DNA from: Haliotis cracherodii
Lineage: Eukaryota
DNA: 64,000 nt
NCBI RefSeq assembly: GCF_022045235.1
Contig: NW_027266269.1
Location: 17,174,001 to 17,238,000 of the forward strand
Direction of reading: 5' to 3'
Below are positions 4,752-28,854 of the stretch, in pieces. Both the position numbers and the translations under genes were made by a program. Positions within the stretch are counted from its first letter, which is position 1. Each line of letters starts with the position of its first letter. The notes beneath the pieces are model-generated. The model worked only from the letters and a program-made list of their open reading frames with translations. It made no database searches and was not told the DNA's origin.

Positions 4752-7392
4752 TGTGTGTAGGAGCTGTCAGAACCAAGTCCTTCTTCCTTGGCTGGAGTCC
4801 AGTGCAGCCAGGCTGGGCAGGCTGGGGAGCCCAGTACACTCCTCTGTGTTTGCATGAAGTGCCGACCTGTACTCTCTATGTCTGAAAGGTTGTGTCTTGT
4901 ATTCATGACTACGGTGAAAGACAAGATTACCTGAAATCCGTTTGATGAAACAATGGCAGATATGATATTTTCATGATTTGGCCCCACATGGGATAGAGAA
5001 TATATATGTCAATAAATGATATTAATCGACACATCAGGGTAAAGCTTGTCTGGTAAATGCTGTAGTGCTATCTACTTCAACTGAGTAGTGCTAATGTCCC
5101 CTTGTTTTGAGCCAGTCTATTTTGTTCTAAACAGTCCCATCAACCCCTATGTTGCCATGGAATAGCTGTAAAAGTAATGAAAGCCAAGAATGTTGTAGCT
5201 GATGGTTGTGTCCAGCTGTCTGTCAGCGACATGTCCATGTTTCTTTTGTTTTGAAGACTAGTCATTGTTTAGATGCTTGATTTGTTATCCCGACCCACAC
5301 GAGAGTGTGTTGTGGAGTATTCCTGTGGTAGCCCTGACAATGCTCAGTCCTGTGTGAACAACGTGCACATCATGTCACATTTCCTGTCTTGCCAAGTGTT
5401 TGGGAGAAACCTTGCATTCTTGAATCTGGTAGATAATGAAATGTATGTCACAGTGATTAAATGAATGTAATGGACAGGATTCAAAGCAGTTGTTAGAACA
5501 AGAGGTGTTCTTGTGTTATCGCCTTATATAACCACCCCAGCAATATTGTGTGTTGTGCTACATATGCATGTGTTCTGCTTCACCTATGGTGCTATTCATT
5601 TGCTTGTTTCCATCTAGGTAGTCTGCCCGGATCACACACTGTCGTATATCTATGTCTACTCTGCTGTCATTTATTCCACAGTTTTTTGTGTGACAAGCAG
5701 TTTCAGGCATATATGAAATATATATTATGCTATTTGGGGTGTTAATATTTTAGTTAATATTTGTACATGAAGCGATCATGTACATCTTTATAAAATGTAT
5801 GAAAACATTATATGAATATAGTGTTGAATTGAACGATTTTGCTGACATTCGTCAATATGCAAGCTGCTGAACTCTGCCTGGCCTTACACCAGTATTGGTG
5901 AGGGAGCCAGGGCGAGGTCTCATGGTTCAACCGACTGTTCCAGCAGTATTCCCCCTGGTTGCTTGGCTTGGCTGGCTCTACACGGAGACGCAGCCACAAG
6001 CCTCATTCACCAGCGTTGTGGGTAAATCACAGCTAGGTTCTGGGAGAGCTTGCACCAAGTGTAGCTATGCAGACCAAGCAGTGCCCCTGTCTGTTGTGTG
6101 TGTGTCGTCTGCTACTCTCTAGAGTTGTGACAGGGTATTAGCTGAACATCATGCAAAAATGATTATCTATACAGTGTGATGTTATTTAATTTCTTTTGAT
6201 ATAATTCAAGTTTTATGACACTTTGTTGTAAGATTCTGTATATTTTAGTGGAACTGATTTCTTGAGTTTTATTTTCCTTTGTTGTGATTTTATAGTTTAA
6301 ATGCTTTTGAAGGCAGCATATTTCCCTATGTGAGGCATGGTAGTGCTCCAGTATGTCGCCCCAATGAGACAGGTCCAGCTTCAGGCCTCATCCAGCCTGT
6401 CACATACTCCATACAAGTATTACCTTTTGGTCATGAAGGATTTATTTATGGGCAAATTTGAACAGCATAATGTGTCAATATGTTTGCAACTTGCAGGCCT
6501 AGGTATACCGGGGTAGTTGTGCTTCGATAAAAAAAATGATGAAATCCCAAAATGCTATGCTTTCTGCATTTTCAATTTTTTTCTCCCTTTTCTGTAGCGT
6601 TGTATTTTATGGGATTTAAAGGTTTCAAGTCTTAAATGATGTTTGAGGTGTGATGAAAAAACTTAACATGTGTCAGTTGATCTCATTTCTAGCTGTCACA
6701 AATAATGACCCTACTCCTGACCCCTGAGCTCCCTTCAACTTCTTGTTCATGTCCCTCCCTGTAACAGGAATTCAGCTTTAGTCCAGTCCCGGTATTTACC
6801 CCCATCAGTGTCGGCGGCCTGCAACCTGCCTTCTAACCGTAATAGTTCTAATTCAGTATGCATGTTTATTCATATCGCCTAAAGGGACTTCTGAATAATA
6901 CCTTGTCTTTCAACTCTCCTGTATACTTTTCTATTTTTTTTCTATGTGTAGTAACTTACAAATGTGTGTGAGCTTGTATCGTGAGTCCCCCAAGCACACA
7001 GAAGGGCCCGTGACTGGGGCCCACATACAGCAGCCCCACCCCGCATGTGCTGGGCGGGGGACATTATATCCCAGTACTAACTAGCAATATTATGTAAAGC
7101 TTTTACTGTAGTGAAGTGGGCTGTGGTCCGTGTGGGGACAGGGAGATGCACCTGCATGGTGGTGGCTGTAGCATTGCTAGAGGACTGTAGTGGAGGCTTG
7201 TTAGAGCAACACAACCCATGGTGGTATCATGCACACCTAACAGTGTAATGTGTAGTAGAATGAATGTATTTTAATTCATGCCAGCCATTTTGAAATTAAA
7301 CAGTAAAATGTTGTTTTTGTTTAGTTGATTTGTTGATATATACTGATCGTGTATACTACAAGTGTCAGAAACGTGTAGGAACATGCCAGAGT

Positions 7393-17773: not shown

Positions 17774-19670
17774 GTGAGTGTTGTCATGTATACACCGCCA
17801 TACTATGGTGGCCGTTGATAGGATGAATGAAGCACTATGTGTGAGTGTTGTCATGTATACACCGCCATACTATGGTGGCCGTTGATAGGATGAATGAAGC
17901 ACTATGTGTGAGTGTTGTCATGTATACACCGCCATACTATGGTGGCCGTTGATAGGATGAATGAAGCACTATGTGTGAGTGTTGTCATGTATACACCGCC
18001 ATACTATGGTGGCCGTTGATAGGATGAATGAAGCACTATGTGTGAGTGTTGTCATGTATACACCGCCATACTATGGTGGCCGTTGATAGGATGAATGAAG
18101 CACTATGTGTGAGTGTTGTCATGTATACACCGCCATACTATGGTTGCCGTTGATAGGATGAATGAAGCACTATGTGTGAGTGTTGTCATGTATACACCGC
18201 CATACTATGGTGGCCGTTGATAGGATGAATGAAGCACTATGTGTGAGTGTTGTCATGTATACACCGCCATACTATGGTGGCCGTTGATAGGATGAATGAA
18301 GCACTATGTGTGAGTGTTGTCATGTATACACAGCCATACTATGGTGGCCGTTGATAGGATGAATGAAGCACTATGTGTGAGTGTTGTCATGTATACACCG
18401 CCACACTATGGTGGCCGTTGATAGGATGAATGAAGCACTATGTGTGAGTGTTGTCATGTATACATCGCCACACTATGGTGGCCGTTGATAGGATGAATGA
18501 AGCACTATGTGTGAGTGTTGTCATGTATACACCGCCATACTATGGTGGCTGTTGATAGGATGAATGAAGCACTATGTGTGAGTGTTGTCATGTATACACC
18601 GCCACACTATGGTGGCCGTTGATAGGATGAATGAAGCGTTATGTGTGAGTGTTGTCATGTATACACCTCTACACTAAGGTGGCTGTTGATAGATGAATGA
18701 AGCACTATGTGTGAGAGTTGTCATGTATACACCTCTACACTAAAGTGGCTGTTGATAGGATGAATGAAGCACTATGTGTGAGTGTTGTCATGTATACATC
18801 GCCACACTATGGTGGCCGTTGATAGGATGAATGAAGCACTATGTGTGAGTGTTGTCATGTATACATCGCCACACTATGGTTGCCGTTGATAGGATGAATG
18901 AAGCACTATGTGTGAGTGTTGTCATGTATACACCGCCATACTATGGTGGCCGTTGATAGGATGAATGAAGCACTATGTGTGAGTGTTGTCATGTATACAT
19001 CGCCACACTATGGTTGCCGTTGATAGGATGAATGAAGCGTTATGTGTGAGTGTTGTCATGTATACACCGCCACACTATGGTGGCCGTTGATAGGATGAAT
19101 GAAGCACTATGTGTGAGTGTTGTCATGTATACACCGCCATACTATGGTGGCCGTTGATAGGATGAATGAAGCACTATGTGTGAGTGTTGTCATGTATACA
19201 CCGCCATACTATGGTGGCCGTTGATAGGATGAATGAAGCACTATGTGTGAGTGTTGTCATGTATACATCGCCACACTATGGTTGCCGTTGATAGGATGAA
19301 TGAAGCACTATGTGTGAGTGTTGTCATGTATACACCGTCACACTAAGGTGGCCGTTGATAGGATGAATGAAGCGTTATGTGTGAGTGCTGTCATGTATAC
19401 ATCGCCACACTAAGGTTGCCGTTGATAGGATGAATGAAGCACTATGTGTGAGTGCTGTCATGTATACATCGCCACACTATGGTGGCCGTTGATAGGATGA
19501 ATGAAGCACTATGTGTGAGTGTTGTCATGTATACACCTCCACACTAACGTGGCTGTTGATAGGATGAATGAAGCACTATGTGTGAGTGCTGTCATGTATA
19601 CATCGCCACACTAAGGTTGCCGTTGATAGGATGAATGAAGCGTTATGTGTGAGTGTTGTCATTTATACAC
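17774..19670. repeat. 67-bp minisatellite, about 28 copies
   Basis: Unit GTGAGTGTTGTCATGTATACACCGCCATACTATGGTGGCCGTTGATAGGATGAATGAAGCACTATGT; successive starts at 17774 and 17841. Confidence 0.97.
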
Positions 19671-19852
19671 CGAAAGACCTGATTGTTGGACAACGGTCTG
19701 GGGATAAAATCAGGGTGCGTAACCCTCATCGGATCATGCGTGCAGGACTCCTGACCCAAGCTACCACGAAAGACCGCATCGTCTACACCAAGCGCCGCAT
19801 CCTCTACAGTACAGGCACGGGTCTGCCTGTAGACACGGTCCCCTTTGGGTGA
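19671..19852 (+). pseudogene. Protein-primed DNA polymerase B C-terminal fragment (Polinton type)
   Basis: KIRVRNPHRIMR...TTKDRIVYTKRRIL...DTVPFG* resembles the K.YRIVY.KR....T.P(Y/F)G C-terminal motif of Polinton pPolB; 5'-truncated at the minisatellite. Confidence 0.75.
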
Positions 19853-20018
19853 AGAGACTAGACAATTTTTATGATGTTCTCAACGTTGTGTCGGCTGTTG
19901 GCGTTTTATCTTGAGGACATGCGTGTTCGGAGAGAGTGCCGTGCACTGTTCACTTCAATCCGTGAAGCCATGGAAGAAATCAACAACGGTCAGATTAGTG
20001 GAACGAAAACAAATGCAA

Positions 20019-20295
20019 CCAATGAGAAGCTAGGGTTTTCGACCAATCAGAGGCCCGCACACACCCTGTGCGAGACTCTGGTCGAACAGTGGTTGTGCTT
20101 TCTCTCCCATGGAACAGGCCTTTTCCTGTGGAAAAGAAACACAACGTCTGTGCCAAACTGGGTTGTGTGTGGGCCAGAAACCAACCAATGAGAAGGTCGG
20201 GTTCTTCACCAATGAGAAGCTTGGGGTTTTATCCAATCAGGAAGCAGGGTTTCAGTTCCTTAAATACCACAGACGTTCGCTTGTCATCACTTTTC
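20019..20295 (+). promoter_or_regulatory. CCAAT-box array plus TATA-like and Inr-like elements upstream of the zinc-knuckle ORF
   Basis: CCAAT at 20019, 20043, 20185, 20209 and 20233 (24-bp spacing within each cluster), TTAAATA at 20260, TCACTT at about 20287, ATG at 20320. Confidence 0.6.
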
Positions 20296-20319
20296 TGCTG
20301 CTGTCCAAGAAGCAACATC

Positions 20320-21201
20320 ATGTCGTCTCGATACAACTGTCTGAAGTGTCAGACCGACAGTCACAGTTACCTGTACTGTCCCATCTTCCCCAGGCAAGAG
20401 AGTTAACTGACTTTAAAAGTCCAGTTTCCACCCTTGCCGAACTAGGCTGGAATTACTGGGCAGTGGCTGTTACTAGTTATGTTCCCCCCCCTGAGCCTCT
20501 CCTATGGACCAATCAGATTCCACCTCTCGTATCACTTGACGTTTGCTTCACACAAAATGGTGGCGCCCAGTCAGGACGATCTGAGCGATAATCAAGATCT
20601 ATATTGTGATAAAACGGGTCTTACATCGCGAAATGCACATCAAAACACGTGAGCACCTTGATTAAAAACATGAAAAGATTTGGAAAATATTTGCTGACAA
20701 CGAGTTGGCTGTGCATATGCTTTGCAAATCCTGCAATCGACCGAAATCTGCACGACTGTTCACGAACTTGATTTCGGTGCGCGATTTTGATTGGACTATG
20801 CATAGACTCGTTAGTCCAGCCAAAATGTAACGACATAATACCAGTCTAGTTCGGCAAGGGTGGAAACTGGATTTTTGTCGTCAGTTAACTCTCTTGCCTC
20901 GGGAAGATGGTACTGTCCTGAAGTGACATGTACCGAGTGTCACACTCAAGGTCACCGCCACTATGTCTGTACGGAGACGAAGACAAACAGTCAAGGTCAA
21001 GCACATGGTCCATGCTACAACAGTCAAGCCGTTGGCCATTTCGCTGCAGATTGCCCAGAACCCCACAAGAAGACTCCAGCAGCGCCGTCAATGTCGACAC
21101 AACTGACACAAGTGCTCCATCTTATAGAAGACATACATAACAATGTCCGTACCCTAAAAGAACACATAACACATCTCCATGCGGATGTTACAGCAAGCTG
21201 A
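20320..21201 (+). pseudogene. Triple CCHC zinc-knuckle plus coiled-coil protein (114 aa once the MITE is removed)
   Basis: CLKCQTDSHSYLYC, CTECHTQGHRHYVC and CYNSQAVGHFAADC. Removing 20382-20918 restores one open frame. Confidence 0.8.
20382..20909 (-). mobile_element. MITE family M1, 528 bp, perfect 9-bp TSD
   Basis: TIRs CATCTTCCC.AGGCAAGAGAGTTAACTGAC; TSD GTACTGTCC at 20373-20381 and 20910-20918; opposite orientation to the other two copies. Confidence 0.92.
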
Positions 21202-21284
21202 GGCAAAAGAAAAAACAACAGAAGCCCCTCAAGAAATCCCCCTTTAAAGCGCCGGCGACGTCATCATTCCTAGGAGGAGGTGCG

Positions 21285-21553
21285 AGTGAGTGAGTTGGGT
21301 TTAACGCCGCTTTTAACAGTATTCCAGTTATATCACGGCGTGTCAGCTTTTATATGGGAGGAAAGCCCGAAGTGACGCAGGTATCCGACGTTTACCACTT
21401 CGGTAAAACCCACGAGCACGGGAATGGTGCTGACAAACCTAGAAACATAATCGGGGCGAACCGGGATTCGAACCTACGATCATAGGTTTCTGGCGTGTCC
21501 AAGGGACGCAACTCTGCACAGCGCATCGCGGCGCTTTAGACGACTGGGCCTCC
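21285..21553 (-). mobile_element. tRNA-derived SINE family C
   Basis: On the minus strand: A-box-like GGCCCAGTCGTCTAAAGCG, B box GGTTCGAATCC, and tail GCGGCGTTAAACCCAACTCACTCAC. Degenerate relatives at about 45519-45670 and 53740-53895. Confidence 0.8.
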
Positions 21554-21779
21554 CGTTTACACGAGTAAAACACCACGTATGTCTATCTAAACGTATGTTT
21601 GTAGTCACGAGTGACAACACGTTTGCATGTATACACGAGTGACAACACCTATGCATGAATTGGCGAGCGACACCGCGAATGTCTGTCTAAACGTATGTTT
21701 GTAGTCACGAGTGACACCACGTTTGCACCTAAGCTCAGACCAGGCACCGGAACGGTCCAATCGGCGCTGCGTTTTGGAC

Positions 21780-21859
21780 CCATCAGCGTGCAGAGACCTA
21801 AACAGAAATAGAAGCCTCTGGACAAGGCTCCGGCCAAGTCCAAGAAGAATGAGAAACAA

Positions 21860-21894
<35 letters not shown>

Positions 21895-22390
21895 TTCTAC
21901 ACCACGCCTGGTCATGAAAGTCAGGTCGCCCAGGAGGAAGCAGTCCCCACCAGTCTCCACCATGGAGATTAAGGGGACCCTTCCCCCGACCCCACAGCCC
22001 TCCGCCGCAGCAAAAGACCTTGCTCCCCTCGAATTCAGAGGGGAGGAGCCTTTCCGCTCGCAGGAGGCCACAGGGCATGGAAAGAAGAAGAGGAAGAGGA
22101 GAGGGATCTCCTCTCCCGACACTCCCCCACGCCCGACCCCAACGCCAAGTCTACGTAGACCCTGACCGCTACAGCACCAAGCCCCACCCTCAACAACAGC
22201 CAAGTCCAGACCGACCTGGTCCAGGAACCAGAAGTTGAAGTAGACCTCCGTCTTGAACTTAACCGGTAAGCAGACCTCATCCTGTAACAGCACCAAGCAC
22301 ACCTCGACCTCTACCAAGGTCTCTCTCTAGAAGAACATAGCCTAGCCAGGAGGCTCCTGGAAAGGCATCGCCAATAGAAAGCAACGGGAC
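21780..22390 (+). pseudogene. Decayed Lys/Pro-rich ORF with NLS-like KKKRKRR and an acidic helical tail
   Basis: QRPKQK*KPLDKAPAKSKKNEKQTPTPTP...GKKKRKRRGISSPDTPP..., then DLVQEPEVEVDLRLELNR*ADLIL*QHQ... in another frame; premature stops and frameshifts. Confidence 0.45.
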
Positions 22391-22491: not shown

Positions 22492-22830
22492 ATGGCAGTG
22501 ACTGATGGTACGGATGCTTGTGAGCCCAGTAAGCCGCCGACGACACCCCATCAAACTTTTGATAGAAGACTAGTCTCGTTTGAGGCGTGGCGGATGCAGA
22601 TGGGTCAGACCGCTGAAGAGATGGCCCATGTGTGCTTACCGATAGCGTGTGCTGCTTTCAATGCGGCGTGCGGCTGAGAAGATGGGCGCCCCACGACGAT
22701 CCTTGGATCCCCAGTGTGTCTACCTCAAGATGACCGGAATGGTGAGACACAAGAAGAACGTGGAGACTACTACTTTCTGGCACTATCTGTGCGAGAATGC
22801 AAATCAGAGGAGCACGAACGAGGAAGCTTT
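22492..22830 (+). pseudogene. Intronless single-BIR inhibitor-of-apoptosis (IAP)-like pseudogene
   Basis: FDRRLVSFEAW...TAEEMA / TDSVCCFQCGVRLRRWAPHDDPW / PQCVYLK across three frame segments. This is the BIR consensus with two small deletions, covering the AGFxY and EH segments. Confidence 0.8.
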
Positions 22831-23020
22831 CCCCCAGGATGAAGTTCCAGTTTCCGTTCCCGTTCCCGTTCCAGTGTTGGTAGTTTTTCTTCTTCAAACG
22901 GCCCTTTTCAGGGCCATCCAACTCTCCCGAAAAAACACTTTCATCATTGCTTTTCATCACTCTGCTTGCCAACCCTGATGCCAATGATATCCTTACTTAA
23001 GTTGAGGATTTTACGTGCGC

Positions 23021-23170
23021 TTTTTATATTCTCCTCCTCCTCGCCATCTTGGTGGCGCACGCCTTCCCGGAACCGAACGTGCCGTGATCTTGAAGGCGCA
23101 CGCCTTCCCGGAACCGGACGTGCCGGCATCTTTAAGGCGCACGCCTCCTGGAACCGGACGTTGCGCCCTC
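23021..23170 (-). promoter_or_regulatory. Subterminal inward-facing promoter: three 41-bp repeats plus YY1-like motif and TATA
   Basis: GGCGCACGCCTTCCCGGAACCG starting at 23054, 23095 and 23136; CGCCATCTT at 23042; TATAAAAA on the minus strand at 23021-23028. Confidence 0.55.
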
Positions 23171-26100
23171 TTCCACTAGAGGGAGAGAAACCACTTTCGG
23201 TAGGGGAAGATGACTCCCGCTGGCTTGGCGGCCAAAGAGCACGCTTACACTACTCACATGTTTTGTAAGTTATGAAAGTTCTTAATGAAGACAATATTTG
23301 TTGCTATTGTGGGTTCCTTCACCAGTATCAAGTCTGGACTATACCACAGAAAGACACTGTCACTACAGCAGATTCTCTCGGATGCACATTGGGAAGGTCC
23401 ATGGACACAGAGCAAGAACGGCGTGCTTCATTAACGTGTTGCGTGGCCACATCATGTTTGCTACTGACTGTTGCCCAACAAATCCAGAACCAGCCATGTG
23501 CGCCTGTTCATCTCTTGGAAGATGTCCCTCCGTGAACAGTCGGTGTACAGCCAACCCCAGACTGCATTTAGACGGACGTCGAAGCTGACAACCACTATGG
23601 TAGACTAACACGCCCGCTTCCCTGCTCGGATCTGGAACCATCATCTCATTGTTGGTCCTCGGACCAACAACTAACTTAAAGACTTTCATGGACGTCTGAA
23701 AAATAAAACAGCATCTAGGAGTTCCCGATGCAAATAAAAATAGGTTGAGGCTGCAGACAGAGCCAAGTGGCTGCGGATGGATCATAATGTCACATTACTC
23801 TCAGCCTCTATCAACTCAGTGAACAGGACCAATACATCATGCGACTAAGGAAAACCTCCACTGCGGACTGAAAACCCCACTTGAGTTCCAGGAGGCTGCT
23901 AGTCGCCCTTTTAAGGGGAATTGAACTGAACATTGAAACAAGCAAATGAGGACTATATCAAACTGAACTCTAAATCCAAATGTTTTGATAAACTCAAGAA
24001 AAGAAAGACTATATCCCCAGACTATATGATAATATGTGTTTCACACACCAATTGTTGTTATTCTATATATGTTATTAAAATATATAATCTGTCTATACCT
24101 GGTCCAGTTCATTTGTATAAAAGGTTACTACGTGGCGACTACAACCACTAGACCCCGACGTGTTTTAAGACTGTTGGCGACATGGGATGTAGGCCGACAG
24201 GGAACACACTCTTGCTAGATTATAACACGATCAAGCACAAGACTACTGACATTTGTGACGACAAGAGGAACTGATTATCTTCATGGGGAAGACTAACGAT
24301 GGAATGCGATGATGCTTTTTTCTGAAACCCGATTAAATGAGCCTTGTCTACTACTAGGGCCTTACCTCTGCATGTGGTGTTGTATGCCGAACATCTTGGT
24401 CGTATGGGCACTCCTGCTCATATTCTTAAAGGTTTCAAACGGGTGGATCGTTTCTTGCATTTGGCGATGTCAGTGGGCCCTGGTCCTTTATCATACTTTG
24501 TCTACTTACATGAACAACTGTAAAACACTAATCAAACATAGTTCACATTCTACTACCACTAAAGTGGAACAAAGAAACGAGAGGAAATATACTTCCACAC
24601 ATTAACACAGCATTGTGCCCGAAACTGCCATGTACTTATCATGTCATATGATTCCACACCATCCCCATGCACCTCTCGTTTTCCATCTGTACATTAATTG
24701 AAGGAACGCCACACGTGGACCCTTGTATTTGTCATGCGCACATTTAGTAGCGACAGATGTTAGATCTGATTGCCTCAAATACAATAACTACATTTAAATA
24801 CATTACCCGTGGTCGCAGGGACGCTACAGAACATTGCTAGGATACAGGGTTAGGAGAACCACACAGGTAGGTAAACATATATTCGCGCTTGAATTCCTAG
24901 CCATAAGTGTATGATAGGACTTGCAGATAGGGCAACATGGTGAGGTGGTCGACTAAGGCGCCGCAATAAGCTTGCAATCTACTCTGAAGTGACTCTGTAC
25001 CAAACACCTGGCGCTATCGTGCCTGAAGTGACTCTGTACCAAACGCTGTATGTGTTCTCGACTCTGACGTCAACCTGTTCATTAGCTCCAAGTGAAACGG
25101 TACTCAAGGGCCGCATGAAAGTGGCTAGATACATGTCTGTTGTAAACATAAAACGTGCACCTGTACACTGTAATAAATAATTGCCGAAAAAAAACATTTT
25201 TGTTATATTCCTGTCAGCACTTTGGAATAAAAATAAATAATGGTGTCTATTTTATGTTTAAAACCTCTTAATTGAAATACAATTGACCAAAAAAGTACGT
25301 TTATCAATAATTCGCAATTGTCTTATTTAATAATGGTTGCGCTTTCTTAAAAAGTTGTCATACATCTACAATAACCTTTTACGTTTCATTTCCACATTGC
25401 GATATTTTATGTTAACCAAGGGAGGTAACTATCAATTACTCGTGTTTGTTTATGGCTGCAAGAGGTGACTATACGGAGATTTGATATCTACGACCTCCAG
25501 GCTTGGATTCACTGAAGGCATCGAAGATACAATCCAAAAAGTAATGTCCTATGCTTATTTTTATTAGCTAGGTATATGATTACGTAGGATATCTTTTTTT
25601 CACTTTAGGACGAAATAAGAAAGAAGTTACGCCGAGAATAGTAAATATCGGCTGAATATGTAGCCTAGGCTGATAGTGATATATAGGTAAGTCGACTTAT
25701 AACAAGAGTAAACTTATCAAATGAAACACTTATATTGGTCGGCGGTCTAAACTTGCAAAACAGGTGTTGTAATGAACTGTTAAATGCATCTGATGACGTG
25801 GATTTAATGCAGCTCTTGCTGGAATTTACGTGTTTTGAACAAGTGAAATGCAGACGTTGATCTATAAGACTAGGCTCCAGGCCTAGCGTGTGCTTGGTAC
25901 AAGGTCCAATCACGGAAAGAAAGTTAGTGGGACTTCGTCTGATTGTTTGGTCACGGATGTCAAGGCATGATGATGAATGGGGAGACCGACCTATCCATAA
26001 GTTCCCGTCAAACACGTACACTACACAGGTGTTCATATGCATGATTTGACCTGAATTCAGAATCATTGAGTTGGTGTGTGCAGCCATTTTTGCTTGTTGA

Positions 26101-27670: not shown

Positions 27671-28854
27671 CGTGGGATGTTCATTAAGGGTTTCCCCTGA
27701 CCCCACTTCCGATGGACCTAGTGGATTGAAACTTGGCATAGGTATTAGTCTTTCTCCAGATAGGAACCACGAAGAGTTACGCACTTCTCCCATTGTTTTA
27801 TGCAACTATGGAGACCTTGCTTGTAAAAGCCCTCATTTTGCGTCTCAAACCAGGACTTGACTTCAGAAATCAGTGTTTCATCTGTGAAAAGTTTTCCCTT
27901 CAAAAATGACTTCATGGTTGGAAAGAGGTGGAAGTCAGATGGTGCAAGGTCAGGAGAGTAAGGAGGATGTGGAAGGATTTCATAGCCACAGGACCGCGCT
28001 TCTGTCTGGGCAACATGAGAGTGTGTACTGGAGCATTGTCTGGCAGGTGACGGACACCCTTGGTCAGCATGCCACACCTTTTAAGCTTGATAGCGTCCCA
28101 CAATTTCCGCAGCAGTGAAGCATGATAAGCTCCTGTAATTGTGGTACCCTTTGCCAAGAAATCCATCATCACTACTCCGTGCTGGTCCCAAAACACTGTG
28201 AGCATGACCTTGCCTGCAGAGGGTTGGACACGTACCTTCTTTGGGGGTGGTGACCCCACATGCTTCCATTGCATCGACTGAACTTTAGTCTCAGTCTCCT
28301 TTGAGCAATTGACTCGTTCCTGCTTTTGGAAAGGTGTGAGCAACCTGGGAATCCATCGTGCAGACATCTTATGCATGTTCAAATTGTCATGGAAGATCAT
28401 GACATCTTGTGCTAACTGACGAACAGTTATACGTCGGTCTGCCAAAATGGCGGTCTCCACTTGATGGATAGTGTCCTCATCAATGGCTGAATGGGGGCGA
28501 CCAGGAATAGCAGTTGTTTCCACAGATGTCCGACCACACTTGAACTGGCGATGCCAGTGTTTAACAACATCATATGATGGGGCATCTTCCCCATAAGTTG
28601 CTTTCATTTCATCGAAAGTTTCTTTTGGTGTGCAACCTTTCAAATATAAAAACCTAATCACTGCTCGGTATTCTACTGGCTCCATTGTCACTACCTACTC
28701 GATCATAACACCTGTAAAAGTGTTAAGATTAATAGTTCGGTGCTGCAAATTCAGACATAACCCATAGATACATGTATCATTACACATGTGAAATTTCAAC
28801 CAAATATGATAACCCTAAGTGGTTTAGGGGAAATCTTTAATAAACAACCCCTCG
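27671..28854 (-). mobile_element. Mariner transposon, internally deleted and frameshifted
   Basis: ORFs 27912-28691 and 27745-28077 carry the HTH, WIPRLL, GKVMLTVFWD, DNA.VH and YSPDLAPSDFHLF motifs. Imperfect TIRs of about 38 bp are flanked by TA. Confidence 0.95.

Follow-up and report, generated by a model that had tools for sequence, protein, structure and literature searches.

The window analysed here, a stretch of 64,000 nucleotides from the abalone Haliotis cracherodii, harbours a dead BIR gene on an old copy of a mobile element that we call segment A, and it is likely that segment A and a second element, segment D, are co-dependent segments of a bipartite integrating virus, which probably arose by fission. 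The two segments have complementary gene sets, have exchanged their ends, are inserted separately and descend from a one-piece lineage, and we infer that each depends on the other. In a wider sense, and with somewhat less confidence, our data favour a double jelly-roll dsDNA virus in two integrating parts, which was recently mobile in the germline and forms copy-back defective genomes of its own, and Maverick cargo rather than retroposition as the cause behind much of the expansion of intronless single-BIR genes in molluscs.

A dead BIR gene in an old, truncated element

An intronless single-BIR gene (BIR1) lies as a relic at 22492-22834 on the plus strand, where its three frame pieces were found as an earlier reading of the sequence alone (the sequence-only reading) had quoted them. 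The assignment of the stitched peptide to the BIR fold was borne out, since PF00653 (Pfam BIR) matches the middle frame piece with 27.2 bits (E 5.6e-6; curated cut-off 22.9) and the stitched relic, with X at the breaks, reaches 114.6 bits with a profile built from 10 natural BIR proteins, compared to 3.4 bits for the best of 200 shuffles. The first and third frame pieces, each searched alone, matched no Pfam family. Two deletions break the gene, and DNA alignments to five of the six sister copies tried (for the sixth, no alignment was obtained) place them after ~22638 and ~22709. Both are long and frame-shifting and the second removes the His ligand, so that the copy is indeed dead through loss of its His segment, as had been proposed. 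The Cys-Cys-His-Cys zinc ligands are found in one frame in young BIR1 and BIR2, and not in the window relic. A close named match to the relic is a BIRC7-like gene in the Haliotis rufescens annotation. Taken by itself, the relic is real and ordinary.

The surrounding element is an old, 5'-truncated Maverick/Polinton-type element of the segment A kind, with the order pPolB tail, zinc-knuckle relic, BIR relic, subterminal motif, 41-bp repeats and ACTACT. Both outer marks implied by the sequence-only reading could be located: a fragment from the C-terminus of segment A's protein-primed polymerase (a DNA polymerase B, pPolB) at 19667-19858 on the plus strand (tblastn, 53% to residues 1341-1415 of the 1418-aa family pPolB) and the ACTACT at 23249-23254. 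Between them lie a family-specific non-coding repeat (20018-20144; blastn), which has several occurrences in segment A, turns up in old as well as young copies of segment D and may have a promoter-like role, and a decayed CCHC zinc-knuckle gene of segment A (20316-21294, plus strand; tblastn and blastn), which is split by a host repeat at about 20382-20909. The link of the non-coding repeat to D was made through the corresponding stretch of a young A copy, which aligns to D copies; Pfam zf-CCHC matched the young copy of the zinc-knuckle gene and was weak on the window. A non-coding stretch common to old segment-A copies follows at 21584-21787 (blastn), a subterminal motif conserved in A, D and gene-less copies at 22842-22953 (blastn), and 41-bp tandem repeats at 23042-23172 form part of the terminal inverted repeat. 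Besides these, a repeat at 21814-22293 has about 40 genomic matches at 69-76%; as four checked copies of it came without element protein, it was treated as an insertion in the element.

The right end of the element (23214-23254, plus strand) belongs to an old end type, for which a pattern search gave 10 matches and the control 0, and which closes the window copy and one old copy each of A (C45:19.596 Mb) and D (C1:1.324 Mb). The old 7.4-kb copy at C45:19.59 Mb has the same gene order and end type as the window and bears BIR1 at both ends. The window copy retains its right inverted-repeat end only: neither a left end nor more pPolB was found in the window or in the preceding 10 kb, and the rest of the pPolB was lost where a 67-bp satellite abuts the fragment. 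This satellite, with about 28 copies at 17774-19672, stops where the pPolB fragment starts. Outside the element, a mariner-type transposase ORF (Pfam Transposase_1 and HTH_48) lies at 27915-28694 of the window on the minus strand.

Segment A carries the polymerase, segment D the integrase and capsid

Young copies of segment A are about 11.5 kb long, carry inverted repeats of ~500 bp tipped with AGTAGT, are flanked by 6-bp target duplications, and encode the 1418-aa pPolB, two single-BIR genes, a CCHC zinc knuckle and three small ORFs. The linkage of the sister copies to pPolB and to AGTAGT/ACTACT ends, on which the sequence-only reading had made its case depend, was found in the genome copies. 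The pPolB scores 122.6 bits against PF03175, and its exonuclease and polymerase motifs are present. BIR1 and BIR2 of young segment A reach 80.8 and 73.8 bits (PF00653) and are putative IAPs, judged by their likeness to the BIRs of XIAP, DIAP1 and NAIP. The young segment A copies yielded no gene for an integrase, ATPase, protease or capsid. The sole copy of 16.2 kb contains a nested 4.9-kb element with inverted repeats of its own. This nested element (C1:41919256-41924196) has 903-bp inverted repeats, ends other than AGTAGT and similarity to integrase and ATPase only, and integrase frames of 393-396 aa like the one in it recur throughout the genome.

Among the sequencing runs listed as containing segment A, none is on record as RNA. 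In four runs (all of them contigs, three only guessed to be RNA) the genes and spacers of segment A are covered alike, and the runs therefore indicate the presence of segment A and not its transcription. A joint with canonical splice ends lies in and behind a 184-aa ORF of segment A (1507-1874 of the copy); it occurs in two guessed-RNA runs from two studies, is absent from the fourth, unlabelled run, and, with a short side of only 25 letters, is a weak hint. The ESM Atlas returned nothing for the 184-aa ORF, and the label 'Oncoid' for it was dropped, as the Rb-binding-like motif appears in 4 of the 16 alignments listed, two of which are the same copy.

Segment D, at about 10.3 kb, has the same inverted ends as A together with 6-bp target duplications of its own, and encodes an ATPase (Pox_A32), an rve-chromo integrase, a putative minor capsid protein, a 442-aa major capsid protein (MCP) and an adenain-like protease. 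Catalytic motifs are present in the integrase, the ATPase and the protease. Young D is rare, and none of the 11 young copies that were mapped contains pPolB. In its structural model (pLDDT 94.8), the major capsid protein is predicted to be a double jelly-roll, with the capsids of Sputnik (a virophage), PBCV-1 and iridovirus as best matches. The minor capsid protein, which has no Pfam match, is so labelled for its position and its likeness to the protein of family C described below. One young D copy has lost the major capsid gene through a deletion, and three young D copies on C6 have one target duplication in common and are probably one insertion that was duplicated.

Old D copies carry BIR1 after the protease at five places. 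In old A and old D alike BIR1 adjoined the end, young D is without BIR1, and young A has two BIR genes. Two old D copies, whose left ends were not found, have B-type pPolB fragments at a distance of about 7 kb. At C80:17.62 Mb, a coding exon like that of a host BIR-BIR-UBA gene is immediately followed by an old D copy with BIR1. That the host gene itself sits inside a D copy was considered and rejected, because the inverted repeat flanking it differs from the family ends and resembles a repeat common in the host.

A further eight elements of 5.5-9.9 kb contain no genes, have family ends and 6-bp duplications and are largely palindromic. Several of them are almost perfect palindromes with arms of up to 4.6 kb, and resemble copy-back defective genomes.

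The genome also holds one-piece Mavericks. Those of family B are about 21 kb long and have one BIR gene beside the ATPase; in at least three subfamilies of B, this gene has stayed at the side of the ATPase, and purifying selection acts on it. Family C is a one-piece Maverick of 16.5 kb at C4:10.27 Mb, whose capsid arm has the gene order of D, with a BIR gene after the protease as in old D. Outside the genome, a metagenome scan gave 6 loci, all too short for a test of the split in a close relative, and scans of viral contigs for relatives by pPolB and MCP found none. One metagenome contig (1-2075) bears a D-type capsid module at 72-73% to the D proteins, with a single-BIR gene between a 127-aa ORF and the major capsid gene; from this position it follows that BIR genes shift inside the capsid module as well. 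A 186-aa ORF (5559-6119 of its locus), which resembles a NADAR-family protein, lies beside a BIR gene and Maverick fragments.

Shared ends and common descent of the two segments

Among the matches listed for one assembly, 59 pairs of family ends were counted, 42 of segment A, 9 of segment D and 8 gene-less, where a pair means two ends less than 40 kb apart and where most A calls come from the coordinates of BIR1 or pPolB hits rather than from retrieved DNA. Unpaired or duplicate ends, two unlike matches, three unlisted ones and the 21-nt matches that belong to another repeat do not enter the count. The family thus shows what marks a multipartite virus, gene sets that complement each other on separate molecules with the same ends, and none of the 59 end pairs encloses both modules or has polymerase and integrase together, as a canonical one-piece Maverick would. 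The layouts are constant across the copies and subfamilies of A and D, up to a dS of about 0.45, and old A and old D are split already.

These counts bear directly on the reading by which A and D arose, in stereotyped fashion, through deletion from a one-piece A+D Maverick, absent from the assembly because it is exogenous, polymorphic or unassembled. Such an origin would fit with the one-piece relatives present in the genome (family C) and with the gene-less palindromes, which show that defective genomes form readily, and a single assembly is the basis of the census. However, not one end pair holds both modules although the Mavericks of families C (16.5 kb) and B (about 21 kb) integrate without difficulty and are well assembled, and both the constant layouts and the early split of the old copies speak against this origin; we consider this reading very unlikely.

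The ends of A and D are 92-93% identical over about 500 bp and interleave in a tree of 49 ends, with exchange of variants between the segments: the label changes 5 times for A and 8 times for D (well-supported branches force 3 and 4 of these), and in none of 200 bootstrap trees do A, D or the gene-less class each come out as one group. An AGTAGT tip and a 6-bp duplication are common to all Polinton families in the genome, and blastn of the family B and C ends against A or D ends gave no match. In the protein trees, the pPolB of A is sister to family C-type pPolBs (SH-aLRT 98) and the MCP of D is sister to the family C-type MCP (SH-aLRT 100), both from quick trees, the one for pPolB with a long outgroup branch. 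Proteins of H. rufescens are sister to both A and D.

Another explanation is a one-way dependence, in which A is a self-copying, capsid-free element that uses any Polinton integrase and D is a satellite on the polymerase of A. Since all Polinton families end in AGTAGT, the integrase of family B could insert A, and B is abundant with open integrase frames; the tip and the duplication are general, and A outnumbers D by about four to five to one. Past the tip, however, the B and C ends are unrelated to those of A and D, whereas A and D exchange end variants with each other and have the older end type in common, and both modules come from the same one-piece lineage. On balance we regard a one-way dependence as unlikely, and a pair of co-dependent segments as the better reading of the ends.

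Pairwise dN/dS between natural copies, computed behind an identity filter that biases dN down and that the window relic failed, was 0.16-0.33 in comparisons of BIR1 with its 7 most distant copies, 0.18-0.72 in 30 pairs of pPolB, 0.31-0.50 for the integrase and 0.35-0.51 for the MCP of D (old versus young), and 0.14-0.20 for the BIR gene of family B (between subfamilies). No clear constraint was seen on the D protease, with 0.58-1.31 between old and young copies, or on the zinc knuckle, with 0.73-2.09.

Maverick cargo among the BIR genes of the genome

A genome search for BIR genes yielded 549 candidates, the best 150 of which were scored. Of these, 71 fall into class A (including a match at C10:10.49 Mb that adjoins a family C polymerase), 53 into class B (one of them on fragments only) and 1 into class D, which puts 125 of the best 150 in Maverick-type elements, where for 68 matches the main ground of the class is a pPolB hit within 16 kb. 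The suggestion of the sequence-only reading that BIR genes on mobile elements are a source of intronless copies is thereby supported for this genome. Because the ranking favours unbroken domains and most host BIRs of the hard clam span two exons (PMC7831173), the figure of 125 in 150 does not stand for the whole genome. The other 25 matches had no Maverick gene in the DNA examined, about 3 kb only in 8 cases; an overly strict pattern found no RING in them, and they are not counted as RING genes. All 14 homologues of a young BIR copy come from H. cracherodii or H. rufescens, and 12 of the 14 go under host IAP names.

In a tree of 85 rows and 64 columns, BIR1 of A and of old D forms one clade (95/92), BIR2 and the BIR of family B each form a clade of their own, and no Maverick BIR clade nests in a host clade. 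In this phylogeny, of the kind called for by the sequence-only reading, BIR1 stands apart from the host genes and no donor emerges. A single origin of all Maverick BIRs is neither supported nor rejected (p-AU 0.178, in a tree without known viral IAPs).

Intronless single-BIR genes of molluscs are commonly put down to retroposition (PMC7831173, PMC8917759), and the BIR gene could accordingly be a host IAP that was retroposed into the element by accident and serves no purpose in it. Such an origin can hardly be upheld for the abalone gene: 53 of the 150 scored BIR1 matches have at least 90% identity, most of them at the same place in segment A, purifying selection acts across subfamilies, and families B and C have BIR genes of their own at fixed positions. 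A retroposed host IAP independent of the element is contradicted by this fixed position together with the separate BIR1 clade, and we rejected it in favour of a gene carried by the element.

Implications and relation to known systems

By analogy with Polinton and adenovirus biology, the terminal protein and polymerase of A would copy any molecule with family ends, the integrase of D would insert such molecules, and the ATPase and capsid of D would package them. BIR1 and BIR2, in their predicted role, would likely hold the host cell back from apoptosis meanwhile. To our knowledge, genome segmentation is very rare among double-stranded DNA viruses. As dated traces of both segments, of a one-piece relative and of defective derivatives lie in the host genome, the splitting of a virus, and how it stays split, can be studied directly. 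Split systems would escape searches that demand a polymerase gene adjacent to a capsid gene. Since most of the intact single-exon BIR matches here are Maverick cargo named as host IAPs, the IAP counts of molluscs and their explanation by retroposition become testable; the obvious case for this question is the set of 42 intronless single-BIR genes of the hard clam.

Non-autonomous Polintons were reportedly described by Kapitonov and Jurka in 2006. In the literature searched, which was mostly open-access and did not include Repbase or the supplements of PMC8502044 and PMC4028283, we found no report of a two-segment Maverick. Polintons that lack single modules are documented, as 9 of 72 in one survey are without capsid, protease and ATPase (PMC4028283). 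Such elements have lost a module and kept their ends, and our gene-less palindromic class fits this pattern; in contrast to them, the integrase here travels with the capsid module, and a complementary partner without polymerase exists that has the same ends and is under selection. Integrase-less Polinton-like elements may use integration genes in trans (PMC11296320), and swaps of pPolB are covered in the literature as well (PMC10748475).

Together, A and D resemble Polintons/Mavericks (also called polintoviruses; in Starrett et al., PMC8502044, the alpha adintoviruses) in AGTAGT ends, long inverted repeats and a 6-bp duplication, as well as in a PF03175 pPolB, an rve-chromo integrase, an A32-like ATPase, an adenain-like protease and a double jelly-roll capsid; the PolB of the Rhodactis coral adintovirus is 44% identical to the family pPolB. 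The difference is that the core genes are spread over two separately integrating elements, neither of which has the full set. IAP and Bcl2 homologues are described in adintoviruses (PMC8502044, section 3.2) and an IAP has been mapped in leafhopper adintoviruses (bioRxiv 10.64898/2026.07.28.741253), so that a Maverick-borne IAP is already known.

Intronless single-BIR IAPs of other molluscs (hard clam clade 1, PMC7831173; oysters, PMC8917759) share with those of A and D one exon, one BIR and a dispersal over chromosomes. In the sections cited, such intronless dispersed IAPs are put down to retroposition or to unnamed DNA transposons (PMC7831173, PMC8917759, PMC13159474), and the word 'Maverick' is absent from the main texts of these three papers; the published cause is retroposition, whereas the abalone copies are Maverick cargo. 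DNA transposons are enriched near the single-BIR IAPs of the hard clam (PMC7831173), and Mavericks are reported as the largest class of DNA transposons in that species (PMC8905726).

A bipartite arrangement itself is found in the Bidnaviridae, where Bombyx mori bidensovirus, like A and D, has two linear segments with terminal inverted repeats and, on one segment, a pPolB of polintovirus origin (PMC4061559). The bidnaviruses have ssDNA and a parvovirus-type capsid, with an integrase not among the genes described in the part of that paper cited here (PMC4061559). A and D fall outside this family: they combine a Polinton integrase with a predicted double jelly-roll capsid, and they reside in the host genome.
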